Assembly: GCF_028368995.1 (NCBI RefSeq)
Contig: NZ_JAQNDL010000002.1
Span: 1,472,001 to 1,536,000, forward strand
DNA from: Nannocystis bainbridge
GTDB taxonomy: Bacteria > Myxococcota_A > Polyangia > Nannocystales > Nannocystaceae
Direction of reading: 5' to 3'
DNA: 64,000 bases
Position 1 is the first letter of the stretch; every line of letters begins with the position of its first letter. Below the pieces are notes generated by a model, which searched no databases, was not told where the DNA came from, and worked only from the letters and a program-made list of their open reading frames with translations. This document shows positions 201 through 50,700 of the stretch, piece after piece. The position numbers and the translations under genes were made by a program.

Positions 201-1817
201 TCAGCGATCGTGCAGGCGCGTGCCGAGCGGCCGCTTCGCCTCGTCGCGCAGGCCGACGAGCACGCTGTCGCCGGCCTCGGCCAGGGCCAGCTCGCCGTAG
301 CGGGCCGCCTCGAGCGTCGTGGCCTCGCCCTCGGGGAACAGGAACGTCTCCGCCCCGAGGCTCACTTCGTCGCCGCGCTTGTGGTAGCGCAGGCGCAGCT
401 CGCCGGGCCGCAGCGCGCGGCCGTCGTCGACGCGGACGAACTGGGCCACGTCGTCGGCGTCGCGGGTGACGACCAGCGCCCCGCGCGAGGCCATCGCCTG
501 CACGTCGTCCAGCTCGGACACCAGCGCGTAGCGCAGCTCCATGTAGTCGCCCTGCATCAGCGAGCGCGGATCGACCGGGGCAAGGCGCAGCAGCACTCGC
601 TCGCCCGCCGCCAGCACGCGCTCCTTCTCGAACACCACCCACCCGGGGATCGCCAGCCCGAGCGCCAGCGCCAGCGACAACCACCGCAGGTCGCCGCCCC
701 GCGTCGCCAGCCGGCCCGCCTCCGTCTCGCGCGGGCGCGCGGCCGTGCGCCGCAGCAAGCCGGCCAACAGCAGGAACATCAGGCCGTGGCTGACGGCCAC
801 GAGCGACTTGGCCAGCAGCGTCGTGCCGTGCTCGTAGTACCAGAAGCCGAGGAAGCCGCCGATCGCGCTCAGGCCGAGCAGGCGCAGGTTGAAGCTCGCG
901 CGCAGCTGCCCGAGGATCAGCAGCGTCAGCCCGGCGCTGAGGCCCGGGGTGTCGAGGCCGAGCAGGGCGGTCAGCCAGATCCCCACACACGCGGCCGCCT
1001 GGGCCCGCCCGCGCAGCTCCGGCCGCTCGCGCCCCGCCTGTACGATCAGCCAGGTCGACAGCGCCGCCCAGCCCGCCGACAGCGCCATCGCTTCGAGCGC
1101 CCACGCGTCGCCGAGGAACATCGGCAGCCCGTCGGTCGCCCCGTCGCCGGCCCCGACCGTGATCGGCCCCAACAGCGCGAGCGGGAGGGTATACGCCAGC
1201 GGCTGCCACAGCCGGCCCAGCCGCGGCAGCAGCTGCGCCTGCAGCACCCACAGTCCGCACAGACATGTCCCCATGAACAGGGCCAAAAGACCATGTCCGA
1301 AGGGACCTACGTCGAGCTCGGCGGCCAGCACCAGCAGCGCCCAGGCGCCGACCAGGACCGCGGCGCAGCCGATGCTGAGGTCGCGGATCAGCCCCAGCGT
1401 GATCGCTTGCAGGATCATCGTGGCGACGCACATGGCCTCGTCGTCGCCGATGACCTCGGCCAGGCTGACGAGCAGCAGGATCTGGCCGCCGATGGCGGCG
1501 ATCCACCGCAGCTGCAGCTCGAGCAGGGTGGTCGCGCCGCGCGCGAGCACGGCCGCCAGCCCGAGGCCCGCGGCGCCGAGCGTGAGGCCGAGCGGCGCCA
1601 CCTCGGTGACATCCATCTCCACCAGGAAGACCGCCAGCAGCAGCGCCCCGAGCCACACCGAGACCGAGGCGCCCGCCTGCTGCAGCCGCAAGCCCTCGCC
1701 GGTGAGCCCGGTCAAGGCGTCGCGGGTCCGCTGCCCGAGCGGCGTGTCGGCGTCGAGCGCCGCGGGGTCGACGTGGCCCTCGCGGGCCAGCTGCTCGAGC
1801 AGCGCCCGGGTGCTCAC
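201..1817 (-). CDS. Membrane protein, DUF4401-like region fused to a C-terminal GDYXXLXY domain
   Basis: Multiple TM helices, then LAPVDPRSLMQGDYMELRY; GTG start overlaps the upstream stop (GTGA at 1814-1817). Confidence 0.85.
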   Translation of the reverse strand: MSTRALLEQLAREGHVDPAALDADTPLGQRTRDALTGLTGEGLRLQQAGASVSVWLGALLLAVFLVEMDVTEVAPLGLTLGAAGLGLAAVLARGATTLLELQLRWIAAIGGQILLLVSLAEVIGDDEAMCVATMILQAITLGLIRDLSIGCAAVLVGAWALLVLAAELDVGPFGHGLLALFMGTCLCGLWVLQAQLLPRLGRLWQPLAYTLPLALLGPITVGAGDGATDGLPMFLGDAWALEAMALSAGWAALSTWLIVQAGRERPELRGRAQAAACVGIWLTALLGLDTPGLSAGLTLLILGQLRASFNLRLLGLSAIGGFLGFWYYEHGTTLLAKSLVAVSHGLMFLLLAGLLRRTAARPRETEAGRLATRGGDLRWLSLALALGLAIPGWVVFEKERVLAAGERVLLRLAPVDPRSLMQGDYMELRYALVSELDDVQAMASRGALVVTRDADDVAQFVRVDDGRALRPGELRLRYHKRGDEVSLGAETFLFPEGEATTLEAARYGELALAEAGDSVLVGLRDEAKRPLGTRLHDR

Positions 1818-2806
1818 GCCTCGTCCTCCTCGGGCTCGGCCGGGCGGCGGGCGCGGAACCACTCGCCGCCGACGTAGCCCTGCGCGCCGAGCAACATGCT
1901 CATGATGAACAGGCCGCTGACCCCGGCGTCGAGCACGTCGAACACCAGCTTGCCCTCGGCGATGGCGAGCAGGCCGAACAGGTGGGCCACCGCCACGCGC
2001 TCGAGCTTGAAGTCGCCGAGCTCGCGCCCGAAGTGCAGCAGCGCGGCCGGCTGCGCCAGGGCCACCAGCAGCGCGAGCGCCTGTCCTTCGGGCCAGCCGT
2101 TCATGACGATCGCCGCCGCGCCGTGGGCGAAGCCGATGCACCAGCCGAGCATCAACGCCGTCGCCGCGGGGCCCTCGAGCGCGCCGCGGCGGATCCGGAG
2201 GAGCAGCGCCAGGGCGGTCAGGGCGGCCGTCACGGCCAGGCTGACCCAAAGACCAGGTGTCTCGAACGGGTTGCTGCCGAGCGCCTGATCGATCCACAGG
2301 TAGGCGGTCGTCACCGCCAGCAGCAGCGCCGTGATCCACGCGCCGCTGAACCGGGTCGCCAGCGCGTAGCCGGCCAGCACCACCGACCAGGCGAGGAACA
2401 GCTCGAACGCGTCGGCGCCGGTCTGGTAGACCTGGCCGACCAGGGCCAGCAGCGGCCCGAACAGCAGCCCGCCGGCCAGCGCCGCGGCCCGCCCGCTGAG
2501 CTTGTCGAGCCCGAGCCTGCCGCCCGCGAGGGTGGCGACGGCCATCGCCGCGGCCGCCATGCCGATCCGCGCCTGCGGCGAGAACATGTCCCAGTTGGCG
2601 GCGACGAAGAAGATCGCGCCGGCGACCGCGAGCACGGTGCCGAGGATGATCAGGTGGAAGCGCGCGAACCGGTACCAGCTCTCGGCGGTCGGCTTGTGGC
2701 CGATCAGCTCGAGCGCGCGCTCGAGGGCCGCGGGCTCGAGCACGCCGGCGGCCGCGAGCGCATGCACGCGGACTGCCAGCGGCGCCCCTGCCAGCGGGTC
2801 GTTCAC
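1814..2806 (-). CDS. DUF2157-family membrane protein
   Basis: GAIFFVAANW and LALVGQVYQTGAD motifs; typical neighbour of GDYXXLXY genes; GTG start chosen at 2806. Confidence 0.85.
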   Translation of the reverse strand: MNDPLAGAPLAVRVHALAAAGVLEPAALERALELIGHKPTAESWYRFARFHLIILGTVLAVAGAIFFVAANWDMFSPQARIGMAAAAMAVATLAGGRLGLDKLSGRAAALAGGLLFGPLLALVGQVYQTGADAFELFLAWSVVLAGYALATRFSGAWITALLLAVTTAYLWIDQALGSNPFETPGLWVSLAVTAALTALALLLRIRRGALEGPAATALMLGWCIGFAHGAAAIVMNGWPEGQALALLVALAQPAALLHFGRELGDFKLERVAVAHLFGLLAIAEGKLVFDVLDAGVSGLFIMSMLLGAQGYVGGEWFRARRPAEPEEDEA

Positions 2807-3132
2807 GCGGCGACGGTAGCACGCCGGCCCGGAGCCCGCGACGCCGGCGGCCATCCTGCGCCAGGGCGTCGGTCGACGCGGCGACGCGCGAGACCGCGAG
2901 ACGAAGATGGGCACGGCAGGACAGGCCAGGTATCGACCGCAAAGGCGGATGCACGGGTACGCCGGCAGGATGAGGGGACCGTCGCACCGCCGACCGCGCA
3001 CCGGGAGCGCATGCCTCGGGCGACAGGACATGGCGCGAGGGACAGGTCGCGTATTCGACCGCGAAGCCTGGCGTCCTGGCTGGCCCGCGGTCGCGAGCGC
3101 CCCCGGCTGCCGCGCTCGGGTATCGTGGCGGC

Positions 3133-6087: not shown

Positions 6088-7392
6088 ATGCGCACCGTCC
6101 TGCTCCTCGCACTCCTGGCCGTGACTCCGCTCGCCTGCGGCGGTGAAGCTGGCGCGGGTGGTCCGGGCGGCCCCGGCGGTCCCGGAGGCAAGGGTCGCCG
6201 CGGCGGTGAGGCCGAGCCGCTGGCCGTCGCCGTCACCACCCTGACCCCGGCCACCATCGAGCGGCACTACCGCGGCGCCGGCACCCTGCGGGCCCTGCGA
6301 GCCGCCGACCTGGTCGCGCTGCAGCCCGGCGTCGTGCTCGATCTCAAGGCCGAAGAGGGCGACCTCGTGGCCGAGGGCCAGCTGCTGGCTCGCCTCGACG
6401 GCCGCGCGTATCAGCTGCAGGCCGCGCGCGACCGCCTCAGCGCCCAGAACGCGGCCAAGGAGCTCGGGCGGCTCGAGCAGTTGACCGGCGTGCTGTCGCG
6501 CGAAGAGCTCGACAAGCAGCGCTACGCCGCCGAATCGGCGCTGGCCAGCGCCCAGGTGTCGCGCCACCAGGCCTCGCAGACGACCGTCTCGGCCCCGTTC
6601 GCCGGCACCATCACCCGCCGCCACATCGACGTCGGCAACCTCGCCACCACCTCCAAGTCGCTCTTCACGATCGCCGACCTCAGCGCCCTCGACCTCGAGC
6701 TGCACGTGCCCGAGCGCGAGGCCAGCGCGGTCCAGGCCGGGGCGCCGGCCGTCGTCGAGCTGCAGGACGGCAGCACGTTCGAGGCCCGGGTCGAGCGCCG
6801 GGCGCCGGTCGTCGACCCGCTGACCGGGACCGTGAAGTTCGTGGTCCGGGCCCGCAGCTTCCCCGCGGGCGCGGTGCCCGGGGCGTTCGCGCGCGCGACC
6901 CTGCGCGTGGCAGTGCGCGAGGCGGCGCCGAGCGTGCCGCGCAGCGCGATCGTCGAGGTCGAGGGCAAGCCGCACGTGTACGTGGTCGAGGAGGGCCGGG
7001 CTCGCCGGCGTCCGGTCGAGCTCGGGCTGGTCGGCGAGGACCGGGCGGAGATCCGCGGCGGCGTGGCCGAGGGCGCCTCGATCGTGCTCGACGCCGGCAC
7101 CGGCATCGCCGAGGGCATGCCCGTGCGCGCGGTCGCCGAGGGCGAGGCCAAGGGAGCCACCAAGGCGACGGGCGAGGGCAAGGCCGACGCTGCCGCGGGC
7201 GGCGAGGGCAAGGCCGCGGCGGGCCAGGCAGGCGCCGCGGCTGCGGGCCTGTCCGCCGAGGCAGGTCCGAAGGGACAGGTCCCCGAGGCCAGGTCCGAAG
7301 GGGCAGGTCCCGAGGGCCAGGTTCCCGCGGCCAGGGCGCAAGAGACAGGTCCGAAGGGGCAGGCGGCCGCGGCGCCGCCAGGGGTCCGGTGA
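6088..7392 (+). CDS. RND efflux periplasmic adaptor (MFP) lipoprotein
   Basis: Lipobox LAC, EGDLVAEGQLLARLD, SAPFAG, VDPLTGT; directly upstream of the RND permeases. Confidence 0.92.
   Translation: MRTVLLLALLAVTPLACGGEAGAGGPGGPGGPGGKGRRGGEAEPLAVAVTTLTPATIERHYRGAGTLRALRAADLVALQPGVVLDLKAEEGDLVAEGQLLARLDGRAYQLQAARDRLSAQNAAKELGRLEQLTGVLSREELDKQRYAAESALASAQVSRHQASQTTVSAPFAGTITRRHIDVGNLATTSKSLFTIADLSALDLELHVPEREASAVQAGAPAVVELQDGSTFEARVERRAPVVDPLTGTVKFVVRARSFPAGAVPGAFARATLRVAVREAAPSVPRSAIVEVEGKPHVYVVEEGRARRRPVELGLVGEDRAEIRGGVAEGASIVLDAGTGIAEGMPVRAVAEGEAKGATKATGEGKADAAAGGEGKAAAGQAGAAAAGLSAEAGPKGQVPEARSEGAGPEGQVPAARAQETGPKGQAAAAPPGVR
7245..7365. repeat. 14-bp-phased CAGG/CCTG array inside the MFP 3' end (9 units)
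   Basis: CCTG at 7248; CAGG at 7262, 7276, 7290, 7304, 7318, 7332, 7346 and 7360. Confidence 0.9.
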
Positions 7393-10300
7393 CGGGCGAG
7401 GCGCGGCCGCGCGGCATGGTCGCGGGCGCGGTCGGGCGGCCGGTCACGACCACCATGGTGCTGGTCGCTCTGGTCGTGTTCGGGCTGGTCGCGCTGACGC
7501 GGCTGCCGCTGGCGCTGCTGCCCGACCTCAGCTACCCGAGCGTCACCGTCCGCACCGAGATGCCGGACGCGGCCCCGCAGGAGGTCGAGGAGCTGCTGAC
7601 GCGGCCGGTCGAGGAGCTGGTCAGCGCGGTCCCGGGGGTGGTGCAGGTCGAGTCGGTCTCGCGCGAGGGCATCAGCGAGGTCGTGCTCGATTTCGGCTGG
7701 GGCACCGACATGGACCGCGGGCTCGACGACGTGCGCGAGAAGCTCGACCGCGTGGCCCTGCCGACCGGCGTGCAGCGGCCGGTGGTGCTGCGCTACGACC
7801 CGTCGCAGGAGCCGATCCTGCGCCTGGCTCTGGTCTCGCGCGACAACATGCGCCCGGCCGAGCTGTGGGAGCTGGCCGATCGCCGGGTCAAGCGCGCGCT
7901 CGAGAAGATCCCCGGCGTCGCGGCGGTGCAGATCCACGGCGGCGACAAGGAGGAGGTCCGGGTCGAGCTCGACCCGCAGCGGCTGTCGGCCCTGCGCGTG
8001 ACCGCCGACGAGGTCGCCCAGGCGATCCGCCGCGACAACGTCAACCGCCCCGGCGGCGCGCTGTCGGAGCAGAAGAGCCGCTACCTGCTGCGCACCGTCC
8101 ACGAGGCGCGCGAGCCGGCCGAGCTGGCCGAGGTCGTGGTCCGCAGCCAGAGCGGCGCCGAGCTGCGCCTGCGCGACGTCGCCGTGGTCGCGCGGGTGCC
8201 GGTCGAGCGCGAGGAGCTGGCCCTGGTCGCCGGCCGCGAGGCGGTCGAGCTGGCGGTCTACCGCGAGGGCGACGCCAACACGGTGGCGGTGTCGCGGGCG
8301 GTCCAGACGGCGCTGCCCGAGCTGCCCCTCGGGACAGGTCAGAGCGTGGTCGTGCTCAGCGACCAGGCCGCCTTCATCGAGTCGGCGATCGCCGAGGTCC
8401 AGAGCAACACCCTGCTCGGCGGGGCGCTGGCGGTGCTGGTCCTGCTGTTCTTCCTCCGCGACCTGCGGGCCACCCTGGTCATCGCCGCGGCCATCCCGAT
8501 CTCGCTGCTGGTCACCTTCGTGCCGCTGCAGATGCTCGGCGTCAGCCTCAACCTCATGAGCCTCGGCGGCCTGGCGCTCGGCGTCGGCATGCTGGTCGAC
8601 AACAGCATCGTCGTGCTCGAGTCGATCGCCCGCGTGCGGGAGCGCGACCCGCACGGCGGCGCCGCGGCCACGGCGGTGCGCGGGGCCACCGAGGTCGCCG
8701 CGTCGGTCGTGGCGTCGACGCTGACCACGGTGGCGGTGTTCCTGCCGATGGCGTTCGTCGAGGGCGTGGCCGGGCGGCTGATCCGCGACCTCGCGTACAC
8801 GGTGTCGCTCAGCATCCTGTCGTCGATGTTCGTCAGCCTGACCCTGGTGCCGGTGCTGCAGAGCCTCGGCGGCGGGGCCGGCGAGGGCGAGGGCGAGCCG
8901 GCGCCGCGCTCGCTGATCGCCTGGCTGCTGGCCCCGCTCGCCCTGGCGTTTCGCGGCCTGCGCGTTGCGACATGGTCGATGGGGAAGGTGCTCCGCGTGC
9001 TCACGGCCCCGTTCACGGCCGCCTACGCCGCGGTCGAGGATGCCTATCCGCGGCTCCTGCGGGCCGCGCTGCGCTGGCGGTTCACGGTGGTGGCGCTGGC
9101 GGTGGCGCTGTGCGTGCTGGCGTTCCAGCAGCTGCAGGGCCTCGGCAGCACGCTGCTGCCGGAGATCCAGCAGGGCGAGTTCTTCGTCCAGATCTCGCTG
9201 CCGCAGGGCAGCTCGCTCGACCGCACGGCCCACGTCGCCCGCCGGGTCGCCGCCGCGGTCGAGCAGGACGAGGCGGTCGCCCAGGTGTTCGCGCGCGTCG
9301 GCAGCATGACCGCCGGCGACAGCGCCACCGGCACGGTCGCCGGCACCCACCTGGCCCAGGTCAACGTCCGCCTGCAGCCGGGCCTGCTGGCGCCGGAGGA
9401 GGCCGCGCTCGAGGAGGCGCTGATGCTGGCGATGGCCGGCGCGGCCGCCGATCCGGAGGCGACGCTGCGGCTCGGCCGACCGGCGCTGTTCTCGTTCGAC
9501 GCCCCGATCGAGGTCCGCATCTTCAGCGAGGAGCCCGAGCGCGCGATCGGCCACGCGCTGGCGCTGCTGCCCGACCTGCGCGCGATCGAGGGCCTCGCCG
9601 ACGTCGCCCCGGACGACCTCGCCGGCCGCCCCGAGGTCCGCGTCGACTTCGATCGCGAGCGCCTCAGCCGCCTCAACCTCGGCGTCGACGCGGCCGCGCT
9701 CGCGGTCCAGCGCGCGGTCCAGGGCGAAATCGCGACCAAGATGCACGCGGCCGACCGGCAGCTCGACGTCCGCGTTCAGCTGCCGCAGGTCGACCGCACC
9801 CGCGCGGCCGATGTCGGCAAGATCGCCGTGGCCGTGATCGGCGACATCCCGGTCACCGTGGCCGCCGTGGCCGACCTGGTCGAAGGGACAGGCCCCGCCG
9901 AGATCCGCCACCTCGACGGCCGCCGCGGCCTGCGGATCCGCGCCCGCCTCACCGGTGAGGACCTCGGCACCGTTGCAGCCCGCGTCGAGGACGTGCTCGC
10001 CGCCCACGACCCTGGCGACGGCCGCGTCCAGGCCGAGCTCGGCGGTCAGGCCGAGTCCCTCGGCGGGTCGATGAAAAGCATGATGTTCGCGGCACTTATC
10101 GCCGTGTTCCTCATCTACGTGGTGATGGCGTCGAGCTTCGAGAGCCTGCATCACCCGCTGCTGATCATGTTCACCGTCCCGCTGGCGGTGGTCGGGGTCG
10201 CGTGGGGCTGTGTGCTGACCGGCACCCCGATCTCGGCGATGGTCGGCATGGGGGCGATCATCCTCGGCGGCATCGTCGTGAACAACGCGATCGTGCTGGT

Positions 10301-10596: not shown

Positions 10597-13500
10597 GTGA
10601 GCGACCATCGACCTGGCGAAGGGGACATGTCCCCGAACGCAGGTCCGATCGGACCTGGCCCCGAGGACATGTCCTCGAAGGCAGGCCCGCAGGTCAGCGG
10701 TCGAGCCAGCCTCAGCGACCTCGCGCTCGACCGCCCGGTGATGATCGGGATGCTGCTGCTGGCGATCCTGGTCCTCGGCGCGATCGCCACCGCCCGCCTG
10801 CCGCTGGCGTTCCTGCCGGCCGGCGGGACCGCGCGCGTGTCGCTGCGCATCAACCTCCAGCGCACCAGCCCGGAGCTGGTCGAGCGCGAGATCATCCGCC
10901 CGGTCGAGGAGGCGATGGCCGGGCTGCGCGGGCTGCAGCGGATCCAGGTCGGCAGCGGCGGCTGGGGCGTGCGCGTCAACCTCGAGTTCGTCGCCGGCAC
11001 CGACATCGCGGCGCGCAAGGCCGAGATCCGCGAGCGCTTCGACCGCATCCGCGGGACCCTGCCGGACGCGATCACGCGGGTCACGCTCGACTCGTGGGGC
11101 CGCTCCGACGACGCGGTGGTCAAGCTGCGCCTCGCCAGCGACAGCGACCTGACGCGCTCGTACGACCTGATCGAGCGCTACGTGGTGCGGCCGATCGAGC
11201 GCATCCCGGGGGTCTCGCGGGTCGAGCTCGAGGGCGTCGAGCCGCGCGAGCTCGAGGTGGCGCTCGACCTCGAGGCCCTGCGCCGCGCCGGTGTGTCGGC
11301 CCAGGCCGTCAGCACCGCCGTGCGCGAGGCCAGGCAGGGCCGCAGCCTCGGCGTCCTGCGCGAGGACGCGACCCAGCCCGGCGTGCGCGCGCCGCCGATC
11401 GACGCCGACCCGCAAGCGTTCGCGGCCCTGCCGGTGGCCCGCAGCCGCGGGGCCGCGGCGTCGACGACCTCCGCGGCCACCACGGCGCCGCGCACGACCG
11501 CGACGCCTGCCTCTTCGGGCATGTCCTCGGGGACAGCTTCCGCCGGGACCACGCCAGCGGTCTCGGCCACCGCGCCCCTGACGGCCCAGGGCCCGCAAGG
11601 CGTCGGCGCGCGCAGCAACACCGCCAGCGTCGGCCCGGGCGTCTACACCAGCACGCCGATCGGGTCCGGGGTCGCGCCGGCCACGGCGGCGGCGGCCGGG
11701 CAGACCAGCGCGGCCGTGCCGGCGCGGGTCGGCGAGGTCGCGCGGGTCGAGGTCCACCCGCGAGAGAACCGCAACTTCCGCAGCCTCGACGGCCGCCTCG
11801 GCGTCGACCTCTCGGTCTACGCCGACGCCGGGGCCAGCCCGGTCGACGTCGCCCAAGCCGTCAACGGGGTGGTCGAGGAGCTGCAAGCCAGCCCGCGGCT
11901 CGGCGGCATCTCGGCGGTCGTCTACCACGACCAGGGCAAGATCATCCTCAAGACGCTGGCCGACCTGCGCGACACCGGCATCTACGGCGGCGTGCTCGGG
12001 GTGGCCATGCTGTGGCTGTTCCTGCGCCGCTGGGGCGTGACGATGGTGGCCGCGCTGTGCATCCCGCTGACGATCCTGGCGACCTGCGGGGTCCTGCTGA
12101 TCCGCGGCGAGGAGCTCAACTGCATCGTCCTGCTCGGCCTCGTGCTCGGCGTCGGCATGCTGGTCGACAACGCGGTCGTCATCACCGAGGCGATCGAGCT
12201 CCAGGCCCAGCGCGGGCTGCCGGCGCGCCTGGCGGTGCGGGCCGGCGGGCGCGAGGTCGGCCTGGCGACCGTGGCGTCGACGCTGTCGAGCGTGATCGTG
12301 TTCCTGCCGCTGGTGTTCGGCGACCCGGCCAACCCGATGAGCGCGCTGCTGGCCCCGCTCGGCCTGACCTTCGCCACGGTCCTTTTGTGCAGCCTGTTCG
12401 TCAGCCAGACGCTGGTGCCGCTGATCATGCCGACGGTGCTGCGGCGCGGCGGGGTGGCCGAAGGGACAGGTCGCGGCGGACGCCTGCTCGGCCCGCTGAT
12501 CGCCGGCTACGGGCGCCTGATCGCGTTCACGCTGCGGTTCCGCCGGACCGCGCTGGTGCTCGGCCTCGGCCTCGCGGCCAGCGCCGTCATCCCGGTCCGG
12601 CTGCTGGGCTACAACCTCACCGACATCGACCCGAAGCCCGACTGGGTCGAGGTCAGCATGCAGTTCGTCGGCAGCCCCGGCTACAAGGAGATCGGCGAGC
12701 GCGTGCGCGTGGTCGAGGAGGCGATCCTGGCCAAGAAGGACGCGCTCCAGGTCACCCACGTGTCGTGCGCCTACTCCGACTTCTGGGGCCGCTGCGACGT
12801 CCACCCGATCGCCCGCGCCGCCTCCGAGGCCGACGTCGAGGCGTTCACCACCACCGTCAAGCAGGCGCTGCCCGAGCAGCCGGGCGTGCGCTACCTGGTC
12901 GGCGAGAACAACCGCGGGCACATGCGCGGCAACTCCGATCGCCACGAGGTCGAGCTGGCGATCAAGGGCGAGGACATGGGCGTGCTCATGGACCTGTCCG
13001 AAAGGGCAGCTTCGCACCTGCGCGCGACGCTGCCGCGCGGCAGCGCCGACAACCCCGAGTCGGGCGGCGTCGACACCGTGATCGGCCCCTACGACGAGGG
13101 CTCGCGCGAGCTCCACGTCCGCCTCGACGGCGCCCTGCTGCGCCGCTACGGCCTGCGCGCCGACGACGTCGCGCGCCTGATCCAGACCGCGTTCCAGGGC
13201 ACGCCGCTCGGCCAGGTGCGCAGCCCCGAGGGGCAGATCGAGCTGCGCCTGTCGGCCGGCAACGCCAGCGGCAGGGCAGGGGACGGGCCGACGCTCGAGC
13301 AGCTGCGCGACCTGCCGATCCCGCTGGCCGACGGCGGCGAGGTCACCGTCGGCAGCATCGCCTCGCTCGAGCCGACGCGCAGCCCGTTCTACATCCAGCG
13401 GCTCGACCGCGAGACCCAGGTCAAGGTCAAGGCCCGCTTCTTCACCCCCGACCCGGAGAAGAACCGCGCCGCCGTCAACAAGGCGATGGAGAGCTTCGTG

Positions 13501-14088
13501 TTCCCGACCGGCTACAGCAGCGGCGAGTGGTCGCGCTGGGGCCGGACGCAGCGGTCGAGCATGGAGGTCCTGATCGACCTCGGCCTGTGCCTGCTGCTCG
13601 TCTACGCGGTGATGGCCTCGCTGTTCGAGAGCTTCCTGCAGCCGTTCGCCATCCTCGCGACGTGCCTGCTCGGCTGCGTCGGCGCCCCGTGGCTGATGTG
13701 GTGGACCGGCACCACCGTCGACACCACGGCGATGATCGGCCTCTTTATCCTCATCGGCATCGCCGTCAACAACGGCATCATGCTGATCGACCGCGCCATC
13801 CAGCTGCGCGCCGTCGGCATGACCCGCGACCAGGCGCTCGCGGCCGCCGGCTCCGACCGCCTGCGCCCGATCTTGATGACCGCGGGTACGACGGTGCTCG
13901 GCCTGGTGCCGATGCTGATCCACCACCCCACACTCGCAGGCGTCTACTACCACGCCATCGCGCTGATCCTCGTCGGCGGACTGGCGTCGAGTACGGTCAT
14001 GACGCTGGTCTTCCTGCCGGCCACGTACAGCTTGCTCGACGACCTGGCCCGCTCGGCCCGCTCGGTGTGGCGGCGCGTGGCCAGATGA
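10597..14088 (+). CDS. Second RND efflux permease with low-complexity insertion
   Basis: GMLVDNAVVITE, GIAVNNGIMLID, RLRPILMT; A/T/S-rich insert at ~11440-11720. Confidence 0.93.
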   Translation: MSDHRPGEGDMSPNAGPIGPGPEDMSSKAGPQVSGRASLSDLALDRPVMIGMLLLAILVLGAIATARLPLAFLPAGGTARVSLRINLQRTSPELVEREIIRPVEEAMAGLRGLQRIQVGSGGWGVRVNLEFVAGTDIAARKAEIRERFDRIRGTLPDAITRVTLDSWGRSDDAVVKLRLASDSDLTRSYDLIERYVVRPIERIPGVSRVELEGVEPRELEVALDLEALRRAGVSAQAVSTAVREARQGRSLGVLREDATQPGVRAPPIDADPQAFAALPVARSRGAAASTTSAATTAPRTTATPASSGMSSGTASAGTTPAVSATAPLTAQGPQGVGARSNTASVGPGVYTSTPIGSGVAPATAAAAGQTSAAVPARVGEVARVEVHPRENRNFRSLDGRLGVDLSVYADAGASPVDVAQAVNGVVEELQASPRLGGISAVVYHDQGKIILKTLADLRDTGIYGGVLGVAMLWLFLRRWGVTMVAALCIPLTILATCGVLLIRGEELNCIVLLGLVLGVGMLVDNAVVITEAIELQAQRGLPARLAVRAGGREVGLATVASTLSSVIVFLPLVFGDPANPMSALLAPLGLTFATVLLCSLFVSQTLVPLIMPTVLRRGGVAEGTGRGGRLLGPLIAGYGRLIAFTLRFRRTALVLGLGLAASAVIPVRLLGYNLTDIDPKPDWVEVSMQFVGSPGYKEIGERVRVVEEAILAKKDALQVTHVSCAYSDFWGRCDVHPIARAASEADVEAFTTTVKQALPEQPGVRYLVGENNRGHMRGNSDRHEVELAIKGEDMGVLMDLSERAASHLRATLPRGSADNPESGGVDTVIGPYDEGSRELHVRLDGALLRRYGLRADDVARLIQTAFQGTPLGQVRSPEGQIELRLSAGNASGRAGDGPTLEQLRDLPIPLADGGEVTVGSIASLEPTRSPFYIQRLDRETQVKVKARFFTPDPEKNRAAVNKAMESFVFPTGYSSGEWSRWGRTQRSSMEVLIDLGLCLLLVYAVMASLFESFLQPFAILATCLLGCVGAPWLMWWTGTTVDTTAMIGLFILIGIAVNNGIMLIDRAIQLRAVGMTRDQALAAAGSDRLRPILMTAGTTVLGLVPMLIHHPTLAGVYYHAIALILVGGLASSTVMTLVFLPATYSLLDDLARSARSVWRRVAR
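10608..10690. repeat. 14-bp-phased array inside the N-terminal extension of the second permease (6 units)
   Basis: CCTG 10612, CATG 10626, CAGG 10640, CCTG 10654, CATG 10668, CAGG 10682. Confidence 0.85.
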
Positions 14089-14171
14089 GCGAACGCGAGA
14101 CCGCGCCCTGCGTGTGACCGCCAACGTCCGCCGGCGCGCGAAAAGCCACCCCTGACCGCGGCTCCCGCGGG

Positions 14172-15038
14172 ATGATGGCCAGGTCCATGTCCGCCTCCAG
14201 CCCCGAACCCTCGCCCGAGCTGGCCACGCTCCTCGCCGAGAACGCCGCGCTGCGCGAGCGCAACGAGCTGCTCACGGCCGTCATCCGCCACTGCCCAGCG
14301 GTGATCTTCGTCAAGGACACCGAGGGTCGGCTGTTGGTGTGCAACCAGACCTACGAGCTGCTGACCGGGGCCGGGCCCGGGGGCCTGATCGGCAAGACCG
14401 ACGCCGACATCTTCGGCCCCGAGGCCGGGGCGCAGAACCGCAGCAACGACCTCCGGGTGTGCGAGAGCGGCGTGCCGCAGGAGGTCGAGGAGCTCATCCC
14501 GCAGAGCGACGGGGTCCACGTCTATCTCTCGGTCAAGTTCCCGATCTACGACGCCCGCGGCCAGCTGTGCGGCCTCGGCGGGATCGCCACCGACATCAGC
14601 GAGCGGCGCCGGGCCGAGGAGGAGCGCAACGCGCTTCAGCAGGAGGTCATCGCCGTCCAGCGCTCGGTGCTCGCCGAGCTGTCGACCCCGATCGTGCCGA
14701 TCGCCGACAACGTGATCGCGCTGCCCTTGATCGGCACCATCGACCGCGACCGCGGCCGCGCCATCATGGAGGCGCTGCTCGAGGGCGTGGCCGAGTACCG
14801 GGCCCGCGCGGCCATCCTCGACGTCACCGGCGTGCGCTCGATCGACGCCCAGATCGCCGCCGGTCTGCTGCAGGCGGTCCACGCGGCCCGCCTGCTCGGG
14901 ACCCGCGTGATCGTCACCGGCATCCGCCCGGAGGTCGCGCAGGCGATGGTCGGCCTCGACGCCGACTGGCGCAGCGTCGAGATCTTCGCCACCATGCGCG
15001 AGGCCGTCGCCTGGGCCCTCGGCCGCGCACGGCGCTGA
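14172..15038 (+). CDS. PAS + STAS domain protein (RsbR-like)
   Basis: PAS (IFVKDTEGR...GIATDISERR), then ELSTP...LPLIGTID...ILDVTGV...TGIRPEVA. Confidence 0.92.
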   Translation: MMARSMSASSPEPSPELATLLAENAALRERNELLTAVIRHCPAVIFVKDTEGRLLVCNQTYELLTGAGPGGLIGKTDADIFGPEAGAQNRSNDLRVCESGVPQEVEELIPQSDGVHVYLSVKFPIYDARGQLCGLGGIATDISERRRAEEERNALQQEVIAVQRSVLAELSTPIVPIADNVIALPLIGTIDRDRGRAIMEALLEGVAEYRARAAILDVTGVRSIDAQIAAGLLQAVHAARLLGTRVIVTGIRPEVAQAMVGLDADWRSVEIFATMREAVAWALGRARR

Positions 15039-15043
15039 CGACG

Positions 15044-15210
15044 ATGGCATGTCCCGAAGGCCATGCTCTTCGGGACATGTACTGCAGGACATGAGCATTG
15101 CGCCATGCCCTGAAGCACATGCGTTCGAGGCCATGCTCCCGAGAACATGTGCATCGAGACATGTCCATGAGGACATGGCCTGATGGCCATGCCCTGAGGG
15201 ACATGCCACG
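15044..15210. repeat. 14-bp-phased CATG array (12 perfect-core units)
   Basis: CATG at 15048, 15062, 15076, 15090, 15104, 15118, 15132, 15146, 15160, 15174, 15188 and 15202; between convergent genes. Confidence 0.95.
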
Positions 15211-15214
15211 CACC

Positions 15215-17125
15215 TCAGTCGCGCGCGCGCGAGCGGGTGAACAGCCCGCCGAGGCCGAGCAGCAGCGACAGCCCGCCCACCGCCAGACCTGTCCCATAGG
15301 CCAGGCGCGAGCGGAGCTCGGCCGCGGCCGTCTCCGGGCGCTCGACGCTGGCGGTCAGGCGCGCCTGCAGCTGCGGGTCTTCGGGCGCCAGCTCGGCCGC
15401 GGTCGCCAGCAGCATGCGCCGGCCGTCCTCGGTGGCGGCCAGGTCGGCCTCGGCCAGCAGCGCCTGGACCCGCAGCGCGTCGGCGCGGCCCGGATCGGCC
15501 TCGTCGAGCAGCGCCGCGCTCTTGCGCCACAGGCGAGCGCCCTGCGCCAGATCGCCGGCGGCGGCGGCCTCGCTGGCGGCCTGCTCGTAGGTCGGCACCA
15601 GCTCGGCGCGGGCGCTGAGCTGCGGATCGTCGGCGAGCAGGCGATCGAGGATCGCGATCGCGGCCGCGCGATCGGGCTCGCCGAGCGCCGCCGCGATCTC
15701 GGCCCGCTCGCGCTCGCGGCGGCCGTCGTCGAGCCGCTCGAAATACGCCCGCGCCAGCCGCTCCGGCTGGGCCTCGCACACCCCGGCGAACACGCTGTCC
15801 TTCGGCGCCGAGCGGCAGTCGGGTTCGGCCAGCTCGGGCTGATGGCTGGCGATCCGACTCATGATCGCGATCCGGGCCAGGTCGCGGTACGTCAGCTGCG
15901 CCGCCGACTCGCCGGTGCCGCCGCCGACGAAGCGCAGCAGCTTGCGCTCGGCCCGCGGCGCCGGCCCGGTCACGAACGCCAGGAACGCCTCGCGCGCGGC
16001 CTCACGCACCCGCGGGATCGCGGCGTCGACGAAATCGAGCAGCGGCCCGGCCGCGTCGCCCGGGCGGACCACGGCGTAGGCCGCGATCAGATCGGCGAGC
16101 CGCGCCGGATCGTCGCCGACCGCCTGCAGCGCCTTGCGCGGGTGGGCCCGGTCCATGCGGTCGACCTGGTAGCCGGCGTACTCCGCCGTGCGATAGGCGA
16201 CCGAGTCCTTCACCACCTGCGCCTCGCCCTCGTCGGCGGGCAGGGGCGGGCGGACCGAGCGCCGCAGCAGCCCGGGCAGCGCCGGATCGCCGAGGCGGCG
16301 GATCGCTCGCCCGACCTCGTCGCGGAACGTGCTCTCGTGCAGGTACGCGGCCGCCAGCAGCGCCTCGACGACCTCGTCGGTGTGCGCCGGCACGGCCCCG
16401 ATCGAGGCCGCCGCGCGCAGCAGCGCCGCCTGGATCACGCAGTCGCGGTAGATCGGCCGCAGCACCTTCGACACCTGGCGCGACGGCAGGGCCAGCAGGT
16501 CGGTGAACCAGTCCTCCGACAGCTTGATCCCTTGGTGGCCGTGGGCCTTCTTCCACGCCAGCTCGAAGTGCCCGTAGCGGTTCGGCACGTCGCCGCCGAT
16601 CACAGCCAGCAGCGCTTTGTAGTCGGCCTTGCGGGCGCTGCGCGGCGCCAGCAGCTCGGCCCGGACCGCCGGCCACAGCTCCGGGGGCGCCGCCGCCAGC
16701 GCTCGCGCCAGCGGCCCGAGGTCGCGGTGCGGCCCGTCGCGCATCGCCGCGATCAGCCCCGCGAGCTCGTCCGCGGCCGTCGGCGGCGCGACCGGCTGGC
16801 CTTCGATACCTGGCGCATCGACCCTGTCGGAAGGTTCCTGTTCTTCGGGACCTGTCCCTTCGGACTCGCGCGGCGGCCCGGTCTTGGCCTTGGCCTTGCG
16901 CTTCGCCGGGCGGGCGGGCTCGGCGTCGTCGGCGGGCAGCTCCGCGACCGCGGCGTCGAGCTCGCGGTCGCCCAGGGCCGCGGCCTGGGCGAACCAGAGC
17001 TCGTAGCGGTCGGCCCAGGCCTGGGCCTGCAGCGTGTCGGCCGACGAGCGGGTCAGGACCACGACCTGCGGCTCACCGGCGCAGGCGGCGACCAGGGTCG
17101 AAAGGAGCAGGGCGCGCCGTGGCAT
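15215..17125 (-). CDS. Hypothetical lipoprotein, HEAT/TPR-like helical, with C-terminal TM helix
   Basis: Lipobox VAAC, Ala-rich helical repeats, C-terminal hydrophobic segment. Confidence 0.75.
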   Translation of the reverse strand: MPRRALLLSTLVAACAGEPQVVVLTRSSADTLQAQAWADRYELWFAQAAALGDRELDAAVAELPADDAEPARPAKRKAKAKTGPPRESEGTGPEEQEPSDRVDAPGIEGQPVAPPTAADELAGLIAAMRDGPHRDLGPLARALAAAPPELWPAVRAELLAPRSARKADYKALLAVIGGDVPNRYGHFELAWKKAHGHQGIKLSEDWFTDLLALPSRQVSKVLRPIYRDCVIQAALLRAAASIGAVPAHTDEVVEALLAAAYLHESTFRDEVGRAIRRLGDPALPGLLRRSVRPPLPADEGEAQVVKDSVAYRTAEYAGYQVDRMDRAHPRKALQAVGDDPARLADLIAAYAVVRPGDAAGPLLDFVDAAIPRVREAAREAFLAFVTGPAPRAERKLLRFVGGGTGESAAQLTYRDLARIAIMSRIASHQPELAEPDCRSAPKDSVFAGVCEAQPERLARAYFERLDDGRRERERAEIAAALGEPDRAAAIAILDRLLADDPQLSARAELVPTYEQAASEAAAAGDLAQGARLWRKSAALLDEADPGRADALRVQALLAEADLAATEDGRRMLLATAAELAPEDPQLQARLTASVERPETAAAELRSRLAYGTGLAVGGLSLLLGLGGLFTRSRARD

Positions 17126-27610: not shown

Positions 27611-27800
27611 GCCGCGGCGCGGAGCCGTCCCGAAGCCCTCGGCCGCAGCGCGACGCGTCGACCTCTTGCCGCGGCGCGGAGCCGCCATTACGGACCTCGA
27701 GGTCCTCGGCCGCCAGCGCGACGCGTCGACCCGACCTCATGCCACGGCGCGGAGCCGCCACTACGGACCTCGAGGTCCTCGGCCGACAGCGCGACGCTCG
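27611..27800. repeat. Degenerate GC-rich tandem repeat, 3 units of ~57-73 bp with internal palindromes
   Basis: GCC(G/A)CGGCGCGGAGCCG at 27611, 27668 and 27741; GGACCTCGAGGTCC palindrome in two units. Confidence 0.8.
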
Positions 27801-27803
27801 GCC

Positions 27804-29544: not shown

Positions 29545-29885
29545 TCTGCATGTACTCCTGAACATGCCTCGCGGGACATGCTCATACAGACATAAACAAA
29601 TCGTCATGTCCAAAGGGCCATGACCAGATGTACATGGCCGATCGATCAGATACATATGTCTGATACAACATGCCCGATAGACCATGCCCAAAGGGACATG
29701 TCCTCTAAAACATCATCGCATGCCCTATGCGACATGCCCGATCGAACATGGCTATATGGACATGTCCTCTAGAACATCCTCGCATGTCCGATGCGACATG
29801 CCCGATCGACCATGCTCACATGGACATGTCCTATGGAACATTCTCGCATGTCCGATGCGACATGCCCGATCGACCATGTCCTCTC
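29545..29885. repeat. Large 14-bp-phased CATG array with a 64-bp higher-order repeat
   Basis: Cores every 14 bp from 29549 to 29875, with 8-bp steps before 29655, 29719, 29783 and 29847, giving 64-bp units. Confidence 0.95.
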
Positions 29886-29893
29886 GAACTTCG

Positions 29894-35985: not shown

Positions 35986-36124
35986 GCGGTATGTCTGAAG
36001 GGACATGTTCATCGAGGATCATCCGGCAATCACCGCAGCGCGTCGCGTGCATCGACCTGCGCTCGAAGCGGCCGCGCCGAGGCCAGGCGAGGCCCGATAT
36101 CGCCACGGGGGAGGCGCGGCTACG

Positions 36125-47942: not shown

Positions 47943-47970
47943 TTTGCCGATAATAGTTATTATGTTAAGT
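47943..47970 (+). other. dif: dif chromosome dimer resolution site
   Basis: TTTGCCGATAA-TAGTTA-TTATGTTAAGT; XerD arm 10/11 identical to TTATGTTAAAT; intergenic and AT-rich; KOPS polarity switches here. Confidence 0.92.
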
Positions 47971-48363: not shown

Positions 48364-50700
48364 TCAGCGGATCGGCAGCCAGAAACGGCTCATCGGCAGC
48401 CAGATCCGCTCCGCGCGGCCCTTTACGTTGCCGCGCGGCACATACGGCTGCGGGCGTTCGGCCGCCGGATCGACGAAGTTGCTGGCGTCGTGGGCCTTTT
48501 GGTACGCGCGCTTGGCCAGGTCGCGGGCGACCTCCGGCGTCGGGCACAGGCCCACGCTGCACTGCATCCGGATCACGACCTCCGTCGCGGGCACCGCAAA
48601 CGCGTACTGCGTGCCGTTGCCCGAAACCGCGTCGCCGGTGATCGCGCCGCTGGCCACGCTGTCGTCGACCTTGGCGTTCGGGATGTCGGCTTGCAGCGCG
48701 GCCAGCTTCTCCGCCAGGCCCTCGGTCGGCCGCAGCCACACCCACACCCCGAGGCTGTACGCCACGTCGCGGACCGTCGCGTCGAGGCGGATCCGGTCGT
48801 ACTCGTAGCGCTCGCTGACCGGAAGCTGCGGCATCTCCTTGTAGCCCGGGATGTCGCCCGGCGGCAGCAGCTCGGGCAAGCGCGTGCGATCCTTGCTGAC
48901 CGAAGGGACATGTCCTTCGACGCTGCGGACCAGCGCCAGCAGCTCACGGTCGCTCGCGCAGCGCTGGCGCCCGCACTCGAGGCTGAACGCGACCAGGCTC
49001 TTGGCGTCGGCGCGCACGTATGTGAATTTTTGCTCGTCCTCGACCAGCCAGCCGTCGTCGCCGGCCTCGTTGACGACCTGCCGGGCCAGCGAGCGCGAGC
49101 TGCCCGCGGCCGCCAGCGCCGTGTCGCGGACGAAATCGACGCTCTCGTCGGGCGCACGCCAGGCGCGTAGCCGGACCAGGCCCGCGGGGCTCGCCGGCTC
49201 GGCGCCGGTCTTGCTGTAGCGGCGCTCGAGGAACGTCTCGGCGGTGGCGCTGCGGCTGGTCCAGTGCTGCGAGTAACGGGCGGTGTTGTCGCCGTCGAGG
49301 ATCTGGCGCGCGTCCTGGCCGCGGTCACGGCCCCAGCGCTCGACCACCTCGGCGACCTTCTCGGCCACGCGACCGGGCGTGCGGCACACCGCGTTGCCGC
49401 AGCGCAGGCGCATCACCGCGTCGGGGTCGACGCGGAACACCGCGTCCTGGGCCACCTCGCCCGCGCTGAGCGTGATGGCCGGGATGTCGGCGCCGACCCG
49501 CAGCAGGCGCTCGCGCAGCTTGGCGTTGCCCTTGCTGCCGAGCCGCTCGTCGCCCTCGATCAGGGCCGCGAAGGTCGTCGCCCTCCCCTCGCCTGCCGTC
49601 AGCGCCTTGTACACCGCCTCGCTGCCGAGCACCGGCTGCCGCCAGATCTCGAGCTCGAGCCCGTGCGCGTCGCTGGCGTGGTCGGCGATGTAGAGGATGT
49701 GATCGAAGCTGGCGTCACCGCGGGCCGAGACGTCGTCGGGGCGCGTCAGCGAGAACAGCTTCTCGTCGGTCAGGTCGCGCAGGTCCTTGACGCTGAGCAA
49801 GCCGTCGGCCGCCACGGCCTCGACCTGGCGCGTCCACGCCAGGCTGTCGTGGCTCTCGTTGCGGTTGTCGCCCATGACCAGCAGGTGGCCCTCGGGCACC
49901 GTCCACTCGCCCACCCTGCGGGCGCCGGCGCGTGGGTCGAGGTTGGTCTTGTAGCGGACCACGTACGTGTGGCCGTCGAGCGTCTCCTCGAACAGCTCGC
50001 AGTGCGGGACCTGCTGCGTGCCGCTGTCGTCGCGGCACTTCTCGGGCAGCTTGTTTCGCTTCAGCTCCTCGAACTCGGCGTCGTCGCTGCGGCGGATGCT
50101 GACCTTGTTGCCGTCGACGCGGATGGTGTCGCCGGCCAGGCCGATGACGCGCTTGATGAAGTCTTCGGACTCGTCGATCGGGTAGCGGAAGACGACGACG
50201 TCGCCGCGCGCGATGTGACCCCAGCGCTCGCCGACGACGGTGGTCGTGAACGGGACCTGGATGCCGTAGATGAACTTGTTGACGAAGATGTGATCGCCGG
50301 CGACGAGCGTCGGCATCATGCTGCCGCTCGGGATCTTGAACGGCTCGTACAGGCACGAGCGCAGGCCCAGCGCCACGAGGACCGCGACGCCGACGTTCTC
50401 GATCGTCTCGCGCAGCGGGCTCTTGCGGGCGAAGCTGGCGTGCTGGTGCAGCAGCTCGTCGAGCCGCTCGGCCTCGTCCTCGGCCTGGTGCCACTGCTTG
50501 GCCTCGCGGTGGCGGGCCAGCGCGTCGACGCTGGCCCGGATCGCCTGCGCGGGCTCGGGCGCGATGCGCCCGCCGTACTTCTTGAGGATCCGGTTGGCTT
50601 CCTTGACCAAAAGCCCGGCGGCGGCCTTGACGCTACCGGTCGAGCGGCGCCCCTCGGGTTTGGCGGGGCGCGGCTCCTGCGCTTGCTGCGGCGTGGTCAC
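48364..50700 (-). CDS. lepB: Signal peptidase I with large internal insertion
   Basis: IPSGSMMPTL (Ser), RGDVVVF, FIKRVIG (Lys), GDNRNESHDS; lies downstream of lepA. Confidence 0.92.
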   Translation of the reverse strand: MTTPQQAQEPRPAKPEGRRSTGSVKAAAGLLVKEANRILKKYGGRIAPEPAQAIRASVDALARHREAKQWHQAEDEAERLDELLHQHASFARKSPLRETIENVGVAVLVALGLRSCLYEPFKIPSGSMMPTLVAGDHIFVNKFIYGIQVPFTTTVVGERWGHIARGDVVVFRYPIDESEDFIKRVIGLAGDTIRVDGNKVSIRRSDDAEFEELKRNKLPEKCRDDSGTQQVPHCELFEETLDGHTYVVRYKTNLDPRAGARRVGEWTVPEGHLLVMGDNRNESHDSLAWTRQVEAVAADGLLSVKDLRDLTDEKLFSLTRPDDVSARGDASFDHILYIADHASDAHGLELEIWRQPVLGSEAVYKALTAGEGRATTFAALIEGDERLGSKGNAKLRERLLRVGADIPAITLSAGEVAQDAVFRVDPDAVMRLRCGNAVCRTPGRVAEKVAEVVERWGRDRGQDARQILDGDNTARYSQHWTSRSATAETFLERRYSKTGAEPASPAGLVRLRAWRAPDESVDFVRDTALAAAGSSRSLARQVVNEAGDDGWLVEDEQKFTYVRADAKSLVAFSLECGRQRCASDRELLALVRSVEGHVPSVSKDRTRLPELLPPGDIPGYKEMPQLPVSERYEYDRIRLDATVRDVAYSLGVWVWLRPTEGLAEKLAALQADIPNAKVDDSVASGAITGDAVSGNGTQYAFAVPATEVVIRMQCSVGLCPTPEVARDLAKRAYQKAHDASNFVDPAAERPQPYVPRGNVKGRAERIWLPMSRFWLPIR

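Follow-up and report, generated by a model that had tools for sequence, protein, structure and literature searches.

A phased 18-bp inverted repeat in genes and at gene ends of three related Nannocystales genera is a candidate binding site of an abundant chromosomal protein

The window, a 64,000-nucleotide stretch of the contig of the soil myxobacterium Nannocystis bainbridge NZ_JAQNDL010000002.1 with 49 called genes, includes an MFP-RND-RND operon. Its second permease (RND permease 2, ACR_tran; 10597..14088, + strand) begins at a GTG one base past the stop codon of permease 1, a start supported by an ATG at the same place in relative G009. A short inverted repeat recurs along this gene. Five phased units (10614..10683), with junctions CCTG-CATG-CAGG-CCTG-CATG-CAGG, make up most of the N-terminal extension of the permease; two lie in an S/T/A-rich insert (11508..11535); a single unit of 11.5 bits, missed by an earlier sequence-only reading, lies in a variable loop (12455..12468); and another single unit (12995..13008), made by substitutions and using the rare codons AGG and GAA, lies in a conserved gap-free stretch. 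The single-sequence structure prediction of permease 2, with a mean pLDDT of 43, is discounted. Further right, an 11-unit intergenic array between convergent genes (15050..15203) represents the typical location of the family. It is followed by the gene for a probable lipoprotein (15215..17125, - strand; by eye it has a lipobox-like LVAAC, and Pfam gives no match), with a single unit at the start of its C-terminal hydrophobic anchor (15290..15303) and four in-phase windows in a K/P/E-rich linker (16811..16866).

Each unit consists of an inverted repeat of 18 bp, C[A/C]TGtcc-N4-ggaCA[T/G]G, with a 14-bp core, TGtcc-N4-ggaCA, and adjoining units overlap by 4 bp. Because these 4 bp are common to both neighbours, CATG alone fits both units, which accounts for the strict phase of 14 bp and for junctions that run CCTG...CATG...CAGG. 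The counts show this geometry: TGTC-N6-GACA occurs 3663 times versus 29-155 times for 15 other spacers, and the next site lies 14 bp away in 4897 cases and 28 bp away in 232, every other spacing below 60 bp being seen at most 78 times. The in-phase neighbour is kept even across a CAGG junction (7.7% of coding and 13.1% of intergenic cases, versus 0.2-0.3% at 17 bp).

The sequence-only reading had correctly placed motifs at all the coordinates that it named, but its unit counts are counts of 4-bp junctions. Because the unit is 18 bp long and overlaps its neighbour by 4 bp, all seven of its isolated 'pairs' (at 2080, 3010, 3029, 9875, 12993, 15288 and 35990) are single sites of 12-22 bits, the second window scoring -5 to -28. 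The array that it placed at 10612-10682 exists with five units of 12-18 bits instead of six (the sixth window scores -14.7), the motif at 11506-11534 consists of two units instead of three, and the four units claimed at 1264-1306 resolve into three plus a weak one at 1252. Four in-phase windows do occur at 16809-16851, as claimed, with scores of 5.1, 6.8, 16.2 and 9.5 bits, and a near-palindrome at 48901 is the right junction of a 17.5-bit unit (48897..48910) with a 3.6-bit neighbour.

Elsewhere in the window, an eight-unit array (7250..7361), which has CAGG at its junctions and contains 42-bp repeats, encodes part of a C-terminal tail of 66 aa in the MFP gene, a tail that G009 does not have, and the three units plus a weak one at 1252..1307 fall in a hydrophobic segment of a DUF4401 membrane protein. 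Single units are found in a membrane-protein gene (2082..2095; arms kept, spacer different in each relative), in RND permease 1 (9877..9890; missing from G009 at equal length, by substitutions), in a signal peptidase gene (48897..48910; kept in three close relatives, missing from G009) and, as a strong site, at the edge of unshared DNA (35992..36005). Two out-of-phase single units 19 bp apart (3012..3044) precede the called start of the gene that ends at 1814. The largest intergenic cluster (29551..29890) has about 21 units in several registers and contains 64-bp duplications.

These sites exceed chance expectation. The 49 genes contain 31 sites above 11 bits, compared with a mean of 2.4 and a maximum of 9 in 200 synonymous-codon shuffles, and genome-wide there are 4416 coding sites above 12 bits versus 448 and 418 in two shuffles. 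We count about 12,700 motif copies in the genome, of which 40%, about 5000, are coding, in genes on both strands; 2102 of the 7039 larger genes have codons rewritten by the motif, and GC3 falls from 0.94 to 0.65 within sites. Every contig carries sites, and viral contigs have no exact match to the two-unit sequence.

On tolerance by the protein, arrays and single sites give different answers. The proposal that sites occupy dispensable protein regions and accumulate wherever they are tolerated is borne out by arrays, which favour variable regions and segments that relatives lack. The flanks of 37 array units are 18 percentage points less identical to G013 orthologues than the gene mean, and 7 of the 37 lie in gaps, units of one array not being independent. 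For single sites the bias is not significant against distant orthologues in G019 (n=14, p 0.74), G024 (n=18, p 0.83) or G013 (n=35, p 0.18). Nor does 'dispensable' describe the unit at 12995, in a stretch aligned gap-free in all distant orthologues shown, those at 1252-1307 and 15290, in or beside hydrophobic membrane segments, or those at 9877 and 48897, in gap-free aligned regions. An overlay on disorder-like composition gives only a small shift: the most disorder-like flanks hold 21% of 2541 singles versus 15% of controls, and 24% of 177 arrays of three or more units versus 11% of controls.

Whether the repeats create new disordered segments, as had been suggested, has a divided answer. Segments missing from G009 hold 14 of 60 internal array units (four genes) versus 1 of 57 singles, and a further six C-terminal array units (one gene); against this, inserts holding arrays are longer than the arrays themselves. 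In permease 2 the N-terminal array is in frame in five close relatives and appears as two unit groups in G009, the extension being short and without sites in G004 and missing in G013, and the variable insert at 11.5 kb is also found in site-free relatives. Base changes write lone copies into ordinary stretches of protein, and phased rows fill variable linkers and lineage-specific tails.

Coding sites are well kept in relatives (77/90, 58/67 and 33/37 in three comparisons). A or T at four-fold positions is retained in 68/80, 55/68 and 35/40 cases inside sites, compared with 214/660, 193/574 and 120/413 outside. Gain and loss take the form of multi-base substitutions towards the consensus. Single sites originate through substitution, and selection maintains them against strong GC3 pressure; for thousands of weak singles such selection is hard to tell from molecular drive. 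We consider it very unlikely that copies of a selfish mini-element or replication slippage made the protein inserts directly. The 42-bp repeats of the MFP tail, the 64-bp repeats at 29.7 kb, a greater likeness of coding units at lag 3 (5.5 of 10 bases), the arrays within inserts missing from relatives and a 14-codon indel coinciding with a site, once in G005 and once in G001, would agree with such an origin. However, adjacent units are no closer than random ones (4.6 vs 4.4 of 10 bases), slippage is rejected as the main source, and only about 2% of neighbours between genes are near-copies; of 117 sites, 62 are missing from G009 at equal length, and stepwise substitution without length change is already usual for single sites. 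DNA alignments of close relatives, in which megablast rarely crosses long gaps, have no gaps in 14-bp multiples and none of 14 or 28 bp at sites. Spacer inversion by template switch, prompted by site 2082, occurs at chance level (1/31 and 2/43, versus 0.5 and 0.9 expected), and G000, 90% complete, has no Y1 transposase of the RAYT family (PF01797, 0 matches).

Between genes, sites concentrate at gene ends. Density is 17.3 per kb in convergent gaps, 4.7 in co-directional gaps and 1.2 in divergent gaps, convergent gaps being 14-fold denser than divergent ones; most arrays begin 0-30 nt past the stop codon, and long ones avoid divergent promoters. Coding arrays show no enrichment close to stop codons, and capture of 3' arrays through stop-codon loss is rejected as a general route. 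Arrays fold strongly as RNA and hug stop codons, as RNA elements would, which speaks against a protein reading. Under a REP-like explanation, which we regard as doubtful, tandem hairpins would end or protect mRNA 3' ends without Rho, coding sites being a by-product. Five-unit arrays fold at -30.8 kcal/mol versus -17.7 when shuffled, yet the consensus explains almost all of this (-29.1 with columns resampled). Most arm changes have no compensating change, mirror-position compensation being absent in coding sites and slight in intergenic ones, and there is a small sense-strand G.U excess after replichore skew (0.74 and 0.39 versus baselines of 0.64 and 0.36). None of the 73 genomes of the order yielded a Rho, and hairpin-plus-T terminators are rare, and rarer still behind co-directional genes with arrays (6/255 vs 81/1446); in convergent gaps, however, they are equally common with arrays (71/565) and without (39/336), and the arrays themselves are not followed by a T-tract. 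About 5000 conserved sites within genes on both strands, and arrays inside the MFP-RND-RND operon, also fit an RNA element poorly, and 50 motif-poor genomes lack Rho too, for which reason we reject Rho loss as the cause.

Sites had also been described as scarce from 36 to 47.9 kb and right of 49 kb. The scarcity is real but mild: 36.1-64 kb, a stretch picked after the scarcity was seen, has five sites, which ranks it at the 5.7th percentile among windows of equal length across the genome. The data do not support a gap specific to dif. The dif-like site (47943..47970, + strand), recognised by its pattern, is nearly identical in G001, G005 and G010, and the surrounding 25 kb and 50 kb on each side fall at the 24th and 41st percentiles. 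The empty stretches consist of genes that have no orthologue in syntenic DNA of the relatives, and the unequal density expected between core and unshared DNA was found (1.79 vs 0.96 sites per kb), unshared DNA of relatives having fewer sites in 7 of 9 blocks. Scarcity near dif tracks unshared DNA, not dif. A KOPS- or matS-type replichore or terminus signal is rejected, there being no polarity towards dif and no confinement to one domain; leading-strand half-site asymmetry is small and would fit GC skew.

Cyanobacterial HIP1, like uptake sequences, is highly iterated and lies in genes against codon preference. The Nannocystis word likewise overrides codon choice, is highly iterated and is scarce in unshared genes. 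According to PMC2817400, the DUS of Neisseria and USS of Pasteurellaceae occur in thousands of copies, many in genes against codon preference, favour poorly conserved positions and are depleted in genes without homologues, traits that the Nannocystis sites resemble. This likeness, the sparser unshared DNA and the substitutions towards consensus could reflect molecular drive, in which uptake, recombination or repair favours a word that has no per-site function and accumulates where tolerated. We hold this to be rather unlikely, since drive on one word leaves unexplained the strict head-to-tail phasing with weak neighbours, the convergent/divergent contrast and the peak just past stops. Here, unlike in DUS, USS and HIP1, the unit is a degenerate 18-bp dyad in an exact 14-bp register concentrated past stop codons; methylase words, too, differ from such a dyad.

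The explanation that we favour, with a probability of roughly 0.6 judged from sequence, is that the unit is bound by an abundant, sequence-specific protein with two-fold symmetry, which coats the chromosome in three related Nannocystales genera. Dimers would occupy adjacent units, probably in a cooperative manner, each about 120 degrees from the next. A single site would cost a protein 5-6 near-neutral codons and could fit almost anywhere; arrays, at 10-40 codons, would survive chiefly in linkers, tails and membrane segments and become new low-complexity peptide. The protein may organise the chromosome, or act as a barrier at the ends of genes, at which transcription halts or collides.

Several known systems share parts of this pattern. 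REP/BIME sequences are abundant palindromes just past stop codons, mostly between convergent genes, and are associated with RAYT transposases. The Nannocystis palindromes similarly concentrate in extragenic space after stops, but no such transposase was found in G000, the units are not copies of one another, stem compensation is little, and 40% of sites are coding and arise by substitution. Rickettsia palindromic elements, inserted and about 150 bp long, become extra peptide in proteins, as repeats do here; unlike them, Nannocystis sites are short and arise mostly by substitution, only arrays coinciding with inserts. Fis is a sequence-preferring nucleoid protein that binds genome-wide in genes and intergenic DNA. 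For CdbA of Myxococcus xanthus, PMC7156744 gives 569 peaks, 8917 predicted motif sites and little influence on transcription; the Nannocystis sites likewise occur in genes and intergenic DNA, but form an inverted rather than a direct repeat, carry much more information and tile strictly. Literature on Nannocystis and myxobacterial repeats does not describe the motif family among the matches listed (subscription papers and supplements outside scope), and the listed matches to the exact decamer are p53 and primer papers.

The motif is present in 23 of the 73 genomes of the order, comprising 23/23 of three genera and including named Nannocystis records with cultured representatives; the other 50 have 0-3 hits. 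In 200 kb each of the motif-poor G019 and G024, there is no excess of sites and no alternative phased motif stood out. An expanded stand-alone Fis-like family is the leading candidate reader, tentatively so, with 3-14 copies in the 23 motif genomes and one copy in 45 of the 50 others. One motif-poor genome has three copies, the recognition helix is identical in motif-poor genomes, 30 loci have no autoregulatory arrays or sites upstream, and the link between copy number and motif, probably a single evolutionary event, vanishes within the clade when the six closest genomes are left out (rho -0.04; 17 genomes). In G000, Fis-like paralogues lie at C2:73091 and C1:1320087 and a copy of ancestral type at C2:2991539. 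An H-NS-like winged-helix family (C3:1107326 in G000) comes next, as an improbable candidate; a fold search gave no match at E 0.001, the nearest being Z-alpha, AspA, ArsR and PadR winged helices. It and a bacterial histone occur family-wide (23/24 each), and both are rejected on copy number, which does not follow the motif. LexA, whose SOS box is CTGT-N8-ACAG, is rejected because its domain is near-identical in motif-rich and motif-poor genomes; the lexA promoter has no site in G000 or G013 and one at -134 in G001.

The sharp phyletic edge, the cultured representatives and the few candidate readers could make the protein identifiable by pull-down. A 12,700-copy code that rewrites codons and supplies peptide to lineage-specific linkers would be a second information layer on the chromosome of a bacterium, resembling uptake sequences except for its phasing. 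If gene ends are marked in place of Rho, bacteria would have a new means of ending transcription. One specific version, speculative and quite improbable, is that in this GC-rich order, where Rho was not found and classical terminators are few, three genera evolved a lattice of protein-coated DNA: the Fis-like family tiles 14-bp-phased sites behind genes as a bidirectional roadblock or supercoil barrier ending transcription, a code whose pull rewrites thousands of codons and adds linkers and tails. Separately, the supplement of PMC11347177 may list more Rho-less species.

PadR is rejected as the reader: it was not found in G000 (Pfam PF03551, PF14557 and two own profiles, the latter matching only HxlR/MarR/ArsR-like proteins, judged by eye), in the complete G001, or in G002, G004, G006, G008 and G009, and it is patchy in relatives (15/41). 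The shape of its operator is nonetheless close. The Nannocystis unit matches the geometry C-N-T-G-N10-C-A-N-G of the 18-bp sequence C-N-T-G-N-A-N6-T-N-C-A-N-G read by B. subtilis PadR (PMC5728393), and AphA binds ATGCAA-N4-TTGCAT cooperatively at adjacent sites (PMC6855506). Unlike these operators, the Nannocystis sites have an inner C where PadR prefers A, avoid promoters and number about 12,700. Phased TGTCA-N4-TGACA rows stand beside PadR/AphA-like genes in five actinobacterial loci.

In the studied Nannocystis genome (G000; 11.05 Mb, ~71.5% GC), TGTC-N6-GACA occurs 3663 times compared with 29–155 occurrences for 15 other spacers, indicating a dyad centred on the spacer. CATG is repeated at 14 bp 3736 times versus about 60–200 at neighbouring distances not divisible by three, a peak absent from six control tetramers. 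An iterated matrix finds 12,705 sites above 11 bits with the consensus c[A/C]TGtcc-N4-ggaCA[T/G]g, adjacent units sharing 4 bp. Middle junctions of intergenic arrays are mostly CATG (3766, compared with 196 CAGG and 195 CCTG), first junctions are CATG or CCTG, and last junctions are CATG, CATC, CAGC or CAGG. The motifs listed by the sequence-only reading are present, but it had counted these junctions, so that its n units are mostly n–1 sites and all seven of its pairs are one site each.

Genes were called with our own dicodon model (8315 genes), in which stops are reliable and starts less so. Across the genome, coding sites above 12 bits number 4416, compared with 448 and 418 after each of two shuffles of synonymous codons, and intergenic ones 7025, compared with 61. 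The window itself (C3:1472001-1536000) holds 31 sites where 2.4 are expected (maximum 9 in 200 synonymous shuffles), well above the codon-shuffled null; the original observation is real, with its counts corrected.

The most likely reading, to which we give a probability of about 0.6, is a code under selection that is bound by a putative protein. Coding sites are kept in three close relatives (~91% protein identity) in 77 of 90, 58 of 67 and 33 of 37 cases, and in the same relatives A/T at four-fold positions is kept in 81–88% of cases inside sites versus 29–34% outside. GC3 falls from 0.94 to 0.65 inside sites, where rare codons dominate (ACA encodes 74% of Thr and AGG 39% of Arg). Among intergenic sites, the 117 that are kept show 2–5% divergence at the TG/CA bases and 30–34% in the spacer, a comparison that is partly circular since both copies must score. 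Against the relative G009 (65% identity), only 14 of 117 coding sites are kept and 62 are missing at equal length, so single sites turn over by substitution. Molecular drive, by which the motif would spread without a function at each site, is an unlikely account of the family. Across the genome, the 100 genes closest to ribosomal-protein genes in codon use almost lack coding sites (0.06 per kb, versus 0.35–0.51).

Sites are most frequent in convergent gaps (17.3 per kb, versus 4.7 in co-directional and 1.2 in divergent gaps), and arrays of three or more units begin mostly 0–30 nt past the stop codon. This placement is what RNA 3′-end hairpins would show, but no T-tract follows the arrays, mirror compensation is little and the folding energy is that given by the consensus alone, making such hairpins doubtful. 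The whole genome gave no Rho match. The 73 genomes searched across the order, one of them a 13.2-Mb assembly in a single contig, likewise gave no hit to the Rho RNA-binding domain, which is present in two genomes from a different family of the same class. The accessible portion of PMC11347177 names only Haliangium ochraceum among 12 Myxococcota. By our own simple rule, hairpin-plus-T terminators occur in 141 of 1098 convergent gaps; classical terminators are also scarce in this genome of a GC-rich order. These results make a role of the motif at gene ends attractive but leave its phyletic edge unexplained.

The sequence-only reading further proposed that sites accumulate wherever the protein tolerates them and may create new disordered segments, an interpretation that is half right. 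Flanking identity at pooled sites lies 5–12 points under the gene mean. For 37 array units compared with G013, flanks lie 18 points below, 7 units fall in gaps and 10 more beyond the alignment, so tolerance holds for arrays; singles show no significant bias in small samples against G019 (14 sites, p 0.74), G024 (18, p 0.83) or G013 (35, p 0.18). Their composition (21% versus 15% in controls) is consistent with a weak bias toward tolerant regions. If 10597 is the start, the N-terminal array of RND permease 2 is translated; an ATG at the same place in G009 supports this start, and the extension is missing from G013. The insert at 11.5 kb is older than its sites, and site 12995 is located in a conserved stretch. 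Charged residues and proline abound in the lipoprotein linker; a search for a distant orthologue to date it found none.

As to new segments, those missing from G009 hold 14 of 60 internal array units (in 4 genes), compared with 1 of 57 among singles and, over all residues, 770 of 46,231; 6 further array units lie within the 66-aa tail of the MFP gene; direction was polarised only where G013 or G004 also lacks the segment. The inserts are longer than the arrays they hold and in one gene G009 has its own array within the same insert, which looks as if arrays had colonised a permissive spot and expanded in part by 42-bp duplication. Selfish copying as the source of the whole motif is very improbable. 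The motif resembles uptake sequences in its manner of entry into genes and REP elements in its place of clustering, but falls outside both by their defining tests. Among the literature matches listed, none describes this phased repeat family.

Counted on both strands, CATGTCC-N4-GGACA has 26–1468 matches in each of the 23 genomes of three Nannocystales genera (g1, g2 and g4) and 0–3 in the order's other 50. In 200-kb samples, sites with a 14-bp neighbour number 132 of 327 in G000, 30 of 141 in G009, 4 of 59 in G013 and 1 of 46 in G011, arrays being common in samples of genus g1 only. A second dyad is over-represented in G011 C24:400001-600000 (L247-L256; TGTA-N2-TACA 18 versus 1, TTGC-N4-GCAA 25 versus 5). 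When GTDB genomes were scanned for three cores in phase, 40 loci came up; by their titles, 22 belong to Nannocystis or Nannocystaceae, and the others are mainly Roseobacter-group and actinobacterial records. Four Roseobacter-group genomes hold 32–55 exact copies of a related word, ATGTC-N6-GACAT, some of them forming phased rows between genes or behind them (L023, L025, L041, L045, L047, L049, L052, L053, L056); no regulator was seen within 1 kb. Five actinobacterial loci (L026, L030, L031, L037, L058; Mycobacterium and other Actinomycetota) carry 3–4 phased TGTCA-N4-TGACA units at ~1001-1036, in the promoter region that a PadR/AphA-like gene shares with a divergently transcribed RPE65-family oxygenase gene, likely a cooperative operator.

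Three candidate readers of the sites emerged when small genes were ranked by how closely their codon use resembles that of ribosomal-protein genes. The first comprises eleven stand-alone Fis-like HTH_8 proteins of 65–82 aa (C2:73091, C2:2991539, C1:1320087 and eight more; loci L147-L153) with codon use like that of highly expressed genes; domains of the Fis family recognise words of the form TGT...ACA. Copies number 3–14 in the 23 motif-bearing genomes; of the other 50, 45 have one, two have none, two have two and one has three. A complex model with four copies and an alignment of our own, unlike the calibration, scored 0.46 versus 0.00 for the best of 3 controls; in the calibration, 20 of 30 solved pairs but 1 of 23 single chains attain this mark. 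Separate runs agree in at least 47% of contacts, with pLDDT at least 75. The model supports self-pairing, bears on the protein and not on DNA, and probably scores by likeness to known Fis-type dimers. Against a Fis-like reader, motif-poor genomes carry the same recognition helix, the genes themselves have no upstream sites, and the correlation of copy number with the motif is gone within the clade. The second candidate, with an N-terminal helical domain, a basic linker and a C-terminal Z-alpha-like winged helix (C3:1107326-1107877, L155; C2:1707006-1707575, L154), has 1–17 matches in 23 of 24 family genomes irrespective of the motif; its unnamed, H-NS-like architecture points to a likely undescribed nucleoid protein. 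The third, a bacterial histone-fold protein (C1:1377114-1377311, L156), has an identical sequence in each of the five closest relatives and is family-wide (23 of 24 genomes).

PadR was also considered. The Bacillus subtilis PadR site is an 18-bp C-N-T-G-N-A-N6-T-N-C-A-N-G (PMC5728393), ATGT/ACAT words with 8–10 bases between them are reported (PMC3506622), and AphA binds ATGCAA-N4-TTGCAT, also cooperatively (PMC6855506). These operators share the geometry of the motif, but no PadR was found in G000.

A dif-like site occupies 47943-47970 and is present in three relatives as well. By eye, sites had seemed scarce from 36 to 47.9 kb and right of 49 kb; 36.1–64 kb indeed holds 5 (5.7th percentile), but dif ±25 kb is only at the 24th percentile. 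A dip around dif is seen in relatives too and may reflect a small dif-related effect. Orthologues occur in the compared DNA of relatives for none of 10 called genes at 36–48 kb and 1 of 10 at 54–61 kb. Density is unequal between shared and unshared genes of the window (1.79 versus 0.96 sites per kb), and in 7 of 9 blocks from relatives the sites are sparser in the unshared DNA. The lineage-specific DNA flanking dif (36000-48000 and 54000-64000) includes a tyrosine integrase (44691-45956) and two AhpC/TPR genes, and GC falls to 0.59 in 62–64 kb. Tandem repeats of 73 and 68 bp at 27637-27820 and 56323-56455 are unrelated to the 14-bp unit. Elsewhere, two contigs end in identical genes (C2:3022-3033 kb and C1:4522-4536 kb), suggesting an assembly overlap.
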